A stretch of 64,000 nucleotides of DNA from the sequence record NC_005066.1; one strand, 5' to 3'. The notes beneath the pieces are model-generated. The model was not told the origin of the DNA and did not search any database. It was given only the letters and a program-made list of their open reading frames with translations. The stretch's first letter is position 1. The number at the start of each line of letters is the position of its first letter. Positions 52,834 through 53,532 of this stretch are shown here, piece by piece. Source of the stretch: Escherichia phage RB49. The translations under genes were made by a program, and so were the position numbers.

Positions 52834-53532
52834 CTAACCACGGGTATAGTGTTCCAGAACAACTGTCAGATGAATATATTCTAATAGATCTTTCCAAAAG
52901 TCAACATCTGGTTCTTCCGGCATACCGTTTTTCTTTGCCTCTTCACGCGCGAGTTTAACACGCTCGTAGAGATCTTTCAATTCTTCCCGCACATTATCAA
53001 AGGTTCTTTCTCCTAACTTACACGCTAAAATAGAAGAACGTCGCGCGAGCGGGAATTGTAGATCACCTGTCTGATAGATTTCAAGTAGTTGATAACCAAC
53101 ACGCAGAGCATGAGAAAGATCTTTCCAGTTACTGAAATACTTTTCAGATTTGGCTACCTGTTTCTTGAGATAACCAGACAAACCCCACATACCAACATGA
53201 TAGAATTTATCGCGATGTGTTCGGATGTATTCCCATTCTCTGGAGGATTCAACCAACATGTTACTAGGCGCGTGCACCATGTCAATAGCGCCGATATCGC
53301 CTTTACATGCCAGATTGATAAACCGTTTTAGACTGAACATATTAACGTCAATATCGTCTTTGGTGTTCTTAATACCTTGACCGCTAGTGCTTTGGTCATA
53401 GTGTTCTTTCATAGATCCTAAGATAATTTCTTTCGCAGTCGGAACAAAGATACCACGATAATCTTTATCTGAATTTTCAGTATCAAGACCGTACAAGTGA
53501 GATCCGAAGACCATTTTAACCATTGTATGCAT
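52834..53532 (-). CDS. putative nucleotidyltransferase (Pol-beta superfamily signature)
   Basis: 232 aa; N-terminal FGSHLYGLDTENSDKDYRGIFV = hG[GS]x9-13 D-x-D pattern; GAGGG SD. Confidence 0.5.
   Translation of the reverse strand: MHTMVKMVFGSHLYGLDTENSDKDYRGIFVPTAKEIILGSMKEHYDQSTSGQGIKNTKDDIDVNMFSLKRFINLACKGDIGAIDMVHAPSNMLVESSREWEYIRTHRDKFYHVGMWGLSGYLKKQVAKSEKYFSNWKDLSHALRVGYQLLEIYQTGDLQFPLARRSSILACKLGERTFDNVREELKDLYERVKLAREEAKKNGMPEEPDVDFWKDLLEYIHLTVVLEHYTRG

Follow-up and report, generated by a model that had tools for sequence, protein, structure and literature searches.

NrdC.11 of Escherichia phage RB49: a shortened RlaP-family nucleotidyltransferase with a possible role in RNA repair

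Introduction

The interval between regB and the endolysin gene of Escherichia phage RB49 harbors an open reading frame (ORF) whose product begins with a nucleotidyltransferase (NTase) signature. Which reaction would such an enzyme catalyze during infection, and on which substrate? The ORF lies on the minus strand of a 64,000-nucleotide stretch of sequence record NC_005066.1, referred to here as the window. An earlier note on this DNA had described the product as a Pol-beta-type NTase and had proposed that it might nucleotidylate proteins, transfer RNAs (tRNAs) or small molecules, or make or cap signaling nucleotides. Judged by its sequence, the gene is the Krischvirus ortholog of T4 nrdC.11 and belongs, with its catalytic residues intact, to the RlaP family (PF10127) of the Pol-beta superfamily. 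Its most likely role, with a probability of roughly 60%, would be the restoration of nucleotides on broken host tRNA before ligation, in concert with PseT and RnlA.

Gene Identity and Family Assignment

The RB49 region is 98.5% identical to that of Escherichia phage Phi1 and shares 90-99% identity with 57 matched records, nearly all from RB49/Phi1-type phages (Krischvirus). In the Phi1 RefSeq record NC_009821, the same gene is phi1p098, labeled "nrdC.11, nucleotidyltransferase". A Pfam search assigns residues 7-191 of the product to PF10127 (RlaP, "RNA repair pathway DNA polymerase beta family") with 54.1 bits and an expectation value (E) of 2.3e-14, the curated gathering cut-off being 23 bits. 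The closest short relative, P0002 (234 amino acids, 57% identical), covers positions 23-229 of the 249 in the profile. The protein also matches PHROG 388 ("nucleotidyltransferase"; E=2e-79). Homologs detected by tblastn occur mostly in Straboviridae and additionally in Bacillus, Mycobacterium and Gordonia phages, and an exhaustive HMMER search returns 3559 clusters (50%-identity representatives) at E<=1e-3. The nrdC.11 orthologs of T4-like phages had already been listed as COG3541 nucleotidyltransferases by Nolan et al. 2006 (PMC1524935). Many NrdC.11 homologs in GenBank and UniRef are named "thioredoxin", "glutaredoxin nrdC" or "HNH homing endonuclease"; these labels look like a naming error propagated from the gene name.

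The ORF encodes 232 amino acids followed by a stop codon, with the N-terminus MHTMVKMVFGSHLYGLDTENSDKDYRGIFV in the ORF listing; the peptide cited in the earlier note corresponds to residues 9-30. The signature G[GS]-x(9-13)-D-x-[DE] falls at residues 10-24 and is matched by two of the 334 stop-free segments of at least 60 amino acids in the window; such a match is, by itself, poor evidence. The GC content of the ORF (0.403) is the same as that of the window. Relative to Phi1, GEC-3S and ECD7, the codons carry 10-13 synonymous differences and a single non-synonymous one (V94I). Because the differences within Krischvirus are near-exclusively synonymous, they indicate a genuine coding gene under purifying selection. 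The claim that this is a real ORF with an NTase signature is therefore upheld by PF10127, PHROG 388, the 3559 clusters, purifying selection, a ribosome-binding site (Table 1) and the structural model described below.

The biochemistry of the family comes from a 2025 preprint (10.64898/2025.12.29.696909) on two Pseudomonas RlaP enzymes, PfRlaP and PaRlaP, both encoded in rtcB operons. These enzymes add one or two nucleoside monophosphates to RNA 3′-OH ends, with Mn2+ as the preferred metal ion, and accept dATP as a donor; neither DNA extension nor protein labeling was seen. They favor the 5′ half of a cleaved-tRNA mimic and, with a tRNA from whose anticodon loop one nucleotide is missing, partly restore aminoacylation (10.64898/2025.12.29.696909). 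In the same work, T4 NrdC.11 is placed in PF10127 and described as being of unknown function.

The remaining sequence searches give no competing assignment. The protein has no match in NCBIfam, reaches only chance level in PADLOC (best E=0.031, to a CARF/HEPN model), and yields only chance matches in the PDB, whether searched as a single sequence or as a 41-sequence profile. CD-NTase and cGAS-like synthases give no profile match, RlaP being the only Pfam family found and no PADLOC match being relevant, and none occurs among the structural neighbors. The proposals of protein or small-molecule nucleotidylation and of immune-signal synthesis or capping are not supported by any of these results, neither Pfam nor PADLOC giving a CD-NTase or MNT match. 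The family, the gene neighborhoods of the relatives and the biochemistry of bacterial RlaP point instead to nucleotide addition at RNA 3′ ends.

Catalytic Residues and Predicted Fold

Two alignments were used for conservation: a 41-sequence alignment (A2) and a 14-sequence alignment extending down to 22% identity and including RNA-repair-linked relatives (A5). The invariant residues of A2 include G10, S11, D22, D24, D60, D62, W136, K137, H141, and R144. In A5, G10, S11, S21, D22, D24, R144, and G174 are invariant, while D60, D62, K137, and H141 are nearly so. The catalytic aspartates, whose loss in relatives would have counted against an active NTase, are therefore kept across this entire range. 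D22 and D24 are predicted to be the two metal-binding aspartates of the DxD motif, and D62 is the probable third catalytic carboxylate. In the C-terminal domain, W136-Q148 make up a conserved side of the first long helix that probably binds the substrate.

The AlphaFold2 model has a mean predicted local distance difference test score (pLDDT) of 91 and a predicted template modeling score (pTM) of 0.87. In it, the alpha/beta NTase domain at the N-terminus consists in turn of a strand, the GS-helix, the DxD-strand, and more strands, one of which starts at D62; a helical domain comes next, at residues ~98-230. Together with the PF10127 match, the model confirms the earlier description of a Pol-beta-type NTase domain followed by a helical one. 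As far as the model goes, every structural neighbor is distant.

The top Foldseek matches are ANT(4′) and kanamycin nucleotidyltransferase (KNTase), with E=3.5e-5 and a template modeling (TM) score of about 0.4. Read with the proximity of the homologs of several phages to ribonucleotide reductase, thioredoxin or glutaredoxin genes, and with the glycyl-radical protein gene adjoining nrdC.11 here, these matches would suit a small-molecule NTase of the KNTase/ANT/Lnu type or an enzyme linked to nucleotide metabolism. Such a function is nevertheless considered very unlikely.

Hailong HalB follows with E of about 1e-4 and a TM-score of about 0.46. A review describes HalB as a bacterial defense component that is paired with the HalA channel and makes protein-primed poly-dA. 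By this resemblance, the phage protein could synthesize oligodeoxyadenylate, possibly protein-primed, which as a decoy would prevent a host HalA channel from opening, or could make another nucleotide signal. This is judged highly improbable. Identity to HalB is 11-15% with TM-scores of 0.4-0.46, sequence searches with the protein or with its family profile match no PDB chain, HalB included, and the Pfam assignment is specifically RlaP, a family whose Pseudomonas members neither extended DNA nor labeled protein (10.64898/2025.12.29.696909). HalB may also rank first by default only, as the PDB set searched does not contain the structure of PfRlaP. The neighbors of nrdC.11 are vs.6, which encodes a Gly_radical domain, and small ORFs without Pfam matches, no search aimed at HalA having been made. 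The specific form of this idea, in which the short NrdC.11 would be a functional mimic of HalB, its closest structural neighbor, that keeps the HalA ion channel shut with oligodeoxyadenylate and has no part in RNA repair, is most improbable; if true, it would disarm a defense system that fires when its DNA signal disappears.

The C-terminal helical bundle resembles HEPN domains by fold only. An HEPN RNase motif (R-x4-6-H) was considered for this domain and rejected; R107-x4-H112 is present, but H112 is not conserved. The absence of the conserved motif bears on a further possibility, namely that the protein is a MenT/AbiEii- or MNT-type enzyme that nucleotidylates the acceptor ends of intact host tRNAs, or AMPylates a host HEPN toxin or another protein as an antitoxin. 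This is regarded as distinctly unlikely, given that the protein has no Pfam match to MNT, AbiEii or NTP_transf_2 and no meaningful PADLOC match, that no partner toxin gene is adjacent, and that RlaP did not label proteins (10.64898/2025.12.29.696909). Moreover, damage to host tRNA would harm a phage without tRNA genes of its own.

RNA-Repair Genes and tRNA Dependence

Phi1 carries both pseT, encoding a polynucleotide kinase/phosphatase, and rnlA, encoding RNA ligase 1, about 75 kb from nrdC.11. Neither the window nor the roughly 97% of the Phi1 genome that was covered yielded a tRNA gene; the phage would therefore depend on host tRNAs. Phi1 additionally has a second small gene annotated "polynucleotide kinase" (ORF229, NC_009821 132340-132816) and a 57B gene annotated "RNA ligase" (NC_009821 60428-60892), while no rnlB was seen in the Phi1 region beside gene 24.

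Gene Neighborhoods of the Relatives

Neighbors were clustered for 80 IMG/VR loci and 52 bacterial loci, and the annotated neighborhoods of seven phage genera were read. Across the latter, no single partner gene is conserved beside nrdC.11, and the neighbors differ between genera. A conserved adjacent partner, which the earlier note had suggested looking for, is thus not found across phage genera; recurrent RNA-repair partners appear in subsets of the relatives only. The adjacency to an RNA ligase or other RNA-repair genes that gave the RlaP family its name is absent from the window and present in relatives; many family members lack it, and it is not decisive for membership.

In seven of the 80 IMG/VR loci (39-50% identity), the gene order is an HD-kinase gene (HD + AAA_33), a small ORF, an Rnl1-type ligase gene (PF09511), zero to two small ORFs, and the RlaP gene. 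In 12 of the 80, an HD phosphohydrolase gene follows the RlaP gene and overlaps its 3′ end. An nrdC.10-like AAA ATPase gene lies within five genes in 10 of the 80, and is also near the gene in the annotated phages PP01 and Acj61.

The HD-domain protein has about 170 amino acids (PF01966) and is encoded, for example, at L089 6926-7450 and L113 6929-7408, as well as in 10 more IMG/VR loci; on one contig, L092 (corresponding to P0245), a truncated RlaP and the HD domain are joined in a single protein. The HD protein may work with RlaP as a phosphohydrolase that heals RNA ends. A "tandem RlaP paralog" in the 12 viral loci proved to be a clustering artifact arising from the one fused ORF, the downstream gene being that of the HD-domain protein.

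Eight bacterial loci, mostly from Campylobacterota (31-44% identity), associate the RlaP gene with a class-II CCA-adding or PolyA_pol+HD gene, immediately adjacent in seven and nearby in one. The stop and start codons of the two genes overlap in several of these loci, and RtcB is encoded next door in three of the eight. This arrangement suggests an alternative in which the phage enzyme would replenish host tRNAs at trimmed acceptor ends, and not at anticodon-loop breaks, as a back-up or partner of the host CCA-adding enzyme. The labeling of full-length tRNAs and ribosomal RNAs by PfRlaP in total E. coli RNA (10.64898/2025.12.29.696909) and the lack of detected phage tRNA genes would fit such tRNA 3′-end maintenance. 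However, adjacency to a true CCA enzyme suggests a complementary rather than a redundant function, PfRlaP shows little nucleoside triphosphate (NTP) specificity and prefers the cleaved-tRNA mimic's 5′ half over the acceptor end (10.64898/2025.12.29.696909), and the phage neighborhoods with Rnl1 and HD-kinase genes point to break repair. CCA-end maintenance is therefore considered unlikely.

Chromosomal relatives in Bacillaceae (26-28% identity) have no RNA-repair neighbors; beta-lactamase, histidine kinase, UvdE, and nucleoside hydrolase genes are among those found beside them. In several unrelated phages, namely Bacillus phage TsarBomba (L007) and those of L006, L008, and L011, genes for ribonucleotide reductase, thioredoxin or NrdH are found a few genes away from the NTase homolog. 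This proximity echoes the "nrdC" neighborhood of T4 and may reflect simple early-gene clustering.

The four alternatives (small-molecule, HalB-like, MenT/AbiEii- or MNT-type, and CCA maintenance) draw on fold-level resemblance or loose context. They are weakened by the specific Pfam assignment, by the lack of sequence-level similarity, and by the tighter RNA-repair neighborhoods.

The Short Form and Its T4-Type Orthologs

Nearly all close relatives have 300-350 amino acids, whereas the RB49 protein and P0002 lack about 100 residues after K128. In searches with tblastn against Tequatrovirus and related genomes, identity is 45-48% over 93-96% of the query. The Pfam profile matches the short form contiguously, while the T4-type protein is matched only to position 143 and with an interruption. 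The T4-type insert is modeled as an alpha/beta mini-domain between the NTase and helical domains.

In a neighbor-joining tree of the shared columns, the RB49 protein and P0002 are nested among long forms, with P0121 (327 amino acids) and P0143 (310 amino acids) as sisters. Two other short proteins, P0141 and P0154, are each sister to long forms and keep remnants of the insert such as "AKYGIKG". Outgroup proteins, which come from Bacillus and Mycobacterium phages, likewise have about 250 amino acids. Because short forms are nested among long ones, the insert has been lost several times, and the tree indicates that the Krischvirus short form is a product of such a secondary loss.

The gene has also changed place. 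In Tequatrovirus PP01, nrdC.11 (336 amino acids) is located beyond the rI-tk-vs block, between the mobD region (mobD.1-side ORFs) and nrdC.10. In Krischvirus, by contrast, it is found between regB/ORF095-097 and vs.6 and adjoins neither nrdC.10 nor mobD; it has moved to the regB-vs.6 interval. The earlier statement that T4 has no obvious counterpart at this position is thus correct for the position, but a T4-type ortholog of 336 amino acids, about 45% identical, exists elsewhere.

The contig encoding P0002 has the same synteny as RB49 (endolysin, vs.8, vs.6, NTase gene), with an HNH homing endonuclease gene inserted before the NTase gene. Two separate lineages have free-standing genes of this kind directly beside the NTase gene. 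In the uncultured Krischvirus relative L009, 57% identical, the order vs.6 to nrdC.11 is preserved and positions 3951-4547 encode an endonuclease with NUMOD4 and HNH_3 domains. In T4, the homing endonuclease gene adjoining nrdC.11 is mobD (PMC2988022). It may be that nrdC.11 or its flank is a homing target.

Other Features of the Locus

The location between regB and the endolysin gene, as originally described, holds: RegB (PF10715, E=1e-48) is encoded at 51556-51978 and an M15-type endolysin at 54719-55108. The product of the upstream neighbor vs.6 (53619-54035, minus strand) is a glycyl-radical domain of the stand-alone, GrcA/YfiD-like kind (PF01228, E=2e-16). When a glycyl-radical enzyme such as pyruvate formate-lyase or the phage anaerobic ribonucleotide reductase has been damaged by oxygen, this product could serve as a spare part. 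Directly 3′ of nrdC.11 lie three tandem small ORFs on the minus strand (52618-52812, 52376-52636, and 51983-52321), corresponding to Phi1 ORF097, ORF096, and ORF095. These three are paralogs with 33-40% identity and a common C-terminal motif, C-(S/A)-H-L...W; none of the three has a Pfam match.

The features of nrdC.11 and its upstream gap are collected in Table 1. Phage GEC-3S has an annotated terminator at the position equivalent to the predicted hairpin. The promoter candidate is weak, with 18 such sites in the scanned region against 10.2 expected.

Table 1. Positions in the window of nrdC.11, its conserved codons and nearby candidate signals
Feature	Position	Strand	Basis
nrdC.11, RlaP-family nucleotidyltransferase ORF	52834..53532	-	ORF listing; PF10127; PHROG 388; Phi1 NC_009821 annotation; mostly synonymous substitutions
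Codons of the hG[GS] motif (G10-S11) in the Pol-beta NTase fold	53500..53505	-	Alignments A2 and A5 (invariant); between strand 2-9 and helix 11-14 of the model
D22-K23-D24 codons, DxD, putative pair of metal-binding aspartates	53461..53469	-	D22 and D24 invariant in A2 and A5; start of strand 24-30 of the model
D60-I61-D62 codons, "IDV" h[DE]h pattern	53347..53355	-	Invariant in A2, nearly invariant in A5; D62 opens strand 62-67 of the model
Codons of residues 129-135 (SEKYFSN), junction where the T4-type alpha/beta insert of ~100 amino acids is missing	53128..53148	-	Alignment A1; Pfam contiguity; tree
W136-Q148 codons (WKxxSHxxRxxxQ), C-terminal domain, conserved face of its first long helix	53089..53127	-	W136, K137, H141, R144 invariant in A2; helix 136-155
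Shine-Dalgarno-like GAGGG, 8 nucleotides 5′ of the ATG	53540..53544	-	Direct sequence reading
Sigma-70-like promoter candidate, TTGGCT-17-TATGAT with TG, just 5′ of nrdC.11	53563..53591	-	Consensus scan, 9/12
Predicted terminator-like hairpin (10-base-pair stem and T-run) in the vs.6/nrdC.11 gap	53585..53609	-	Consensus scan

Proposed Role in tRNA Repair

In the favored reading, nucleotide restoration on broken host tRNA, D22, D24, and D62 would hold two divalent metal ions and support the untemplated transfer of one or a few nucleotides from NTPs to the 3′-OH of a broken RNA. The enzyme would act during infection after the ends have been healed by PseT and before they are sealed by RnlA. Host tRNAs that defensive, RloC-type anticodon nucleases have trimmed would thereby regain their missing nucleotides, such that ligation would give a usable tRNA. 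The same function, replacement by phage RlaP of nucleotides lost to RloC-type nucleases ahead of ligation, had already been predicted by Iyer et al. 2021 (PMC7824862). To the ORF, family, catalytic residues, fold, deletion, and RNA-repair neighborhoods of relatives observed here, this reading adds an enzymatic activity taken from distant family members; by the same analogy, RB49-type phages may share both the activity and its biological role.

Several points weigh against the proposal. The measured activity is that of the Pseudomonas enzymes only (10.64898/2025.12.29.696909), and in the sequence similarity network of that work T4 NrdC.11 belongs to cluster 5, while the Pseudomonas enzymes belong to cluster 1a; since the similarity clusters are separate, transfer of the activity to the phage protein is indirect. 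The authors of the preprint also note that untemplated addition would mostly insert the wrong nucleotide (10.64898/2025.12.29.696909). No RNA-repair gene adjoins nrdC.11 in the window, where vs.6 and the three small ORFs flank it, and the neighbors vary among phage genera. The seven viral loci with an Rnl1-type ligase gene stem from about two lineages only. Loss of the insert may have altered the substrate. Finally, T4 nrdC.11 is dispensable under laboratory conditions, which is compatible with a conditional counter-defense role and equally with many other roles.

As a discovery, the finding matters little: the identification is already known, the gene being annotated, its family named and defined in Pfam, and an RNA-repair prediction published. 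The additions made here are small and consist of the secondarily shortened Krischvirus form and extra neighborhood evidence for the subfamily that includes the T4-type proteins. With tblastn matches in 1619 phage records, NrdC.11 is nonetheless among the most widely conserved T4-like genes without an experimental function, and the Krischvirus protein, a naturally minimized form, would be convenient for biochemical and crystallographic work. If the idea of an RloC antidote is true, a third, nucleotide-restoring step would be added to the classic PseT/RnlA tRNA-repair pathway of T4.

Comparison with Known Systems

ANT(4′) (PDB 1kny and 6un8) shares with NrdC.11 an NTase domain followed by an HEPN-like helical domain. 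It differs in being a bacterial antibiotic-modifying enzyme with 10-12% identity and no family-level sequence match. Hailong HalB (PDB 9dbh, 9dbi, and 9dbj) has no detectable sequence relationship to the phage protein, for which no such partner or activity is indicated. Class-II CCA-adding enzymes and poly(A) polymerases (PF01743) belong to the same superfamily and are likewise template-independent nucleotidyltransferases of RNA 3′ ends. However, they form another family with an RNA-binding body and an HD domain, to which the nrdC.11 protein has no Pfam match.

The Pseudomonas RlaP enzymes are members of the same Pfam family and, as described, have the layout of NTase and helical domains predicted for the phage protein as well as three conserved aspartates. 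The length of the short form is close to that of the canonical family profile, and the AlphaFold2 layout agrees with the preprint's description of the PfRlaP crystal structure, the comparison being made by description only. In contrast, they form a distant subfamily, and their genes lie inside rtcB-rtcA operons, whereas the RB49 gene has no RNA-repair neighbor. T4-type NrdC.11 is orthologous, with about 45% identity over both flanks of the insert and identical catalytic and helical-domain motifs in alignment A1; it has about 336 amino acids with the insert, compared with 232 without it in RB49.

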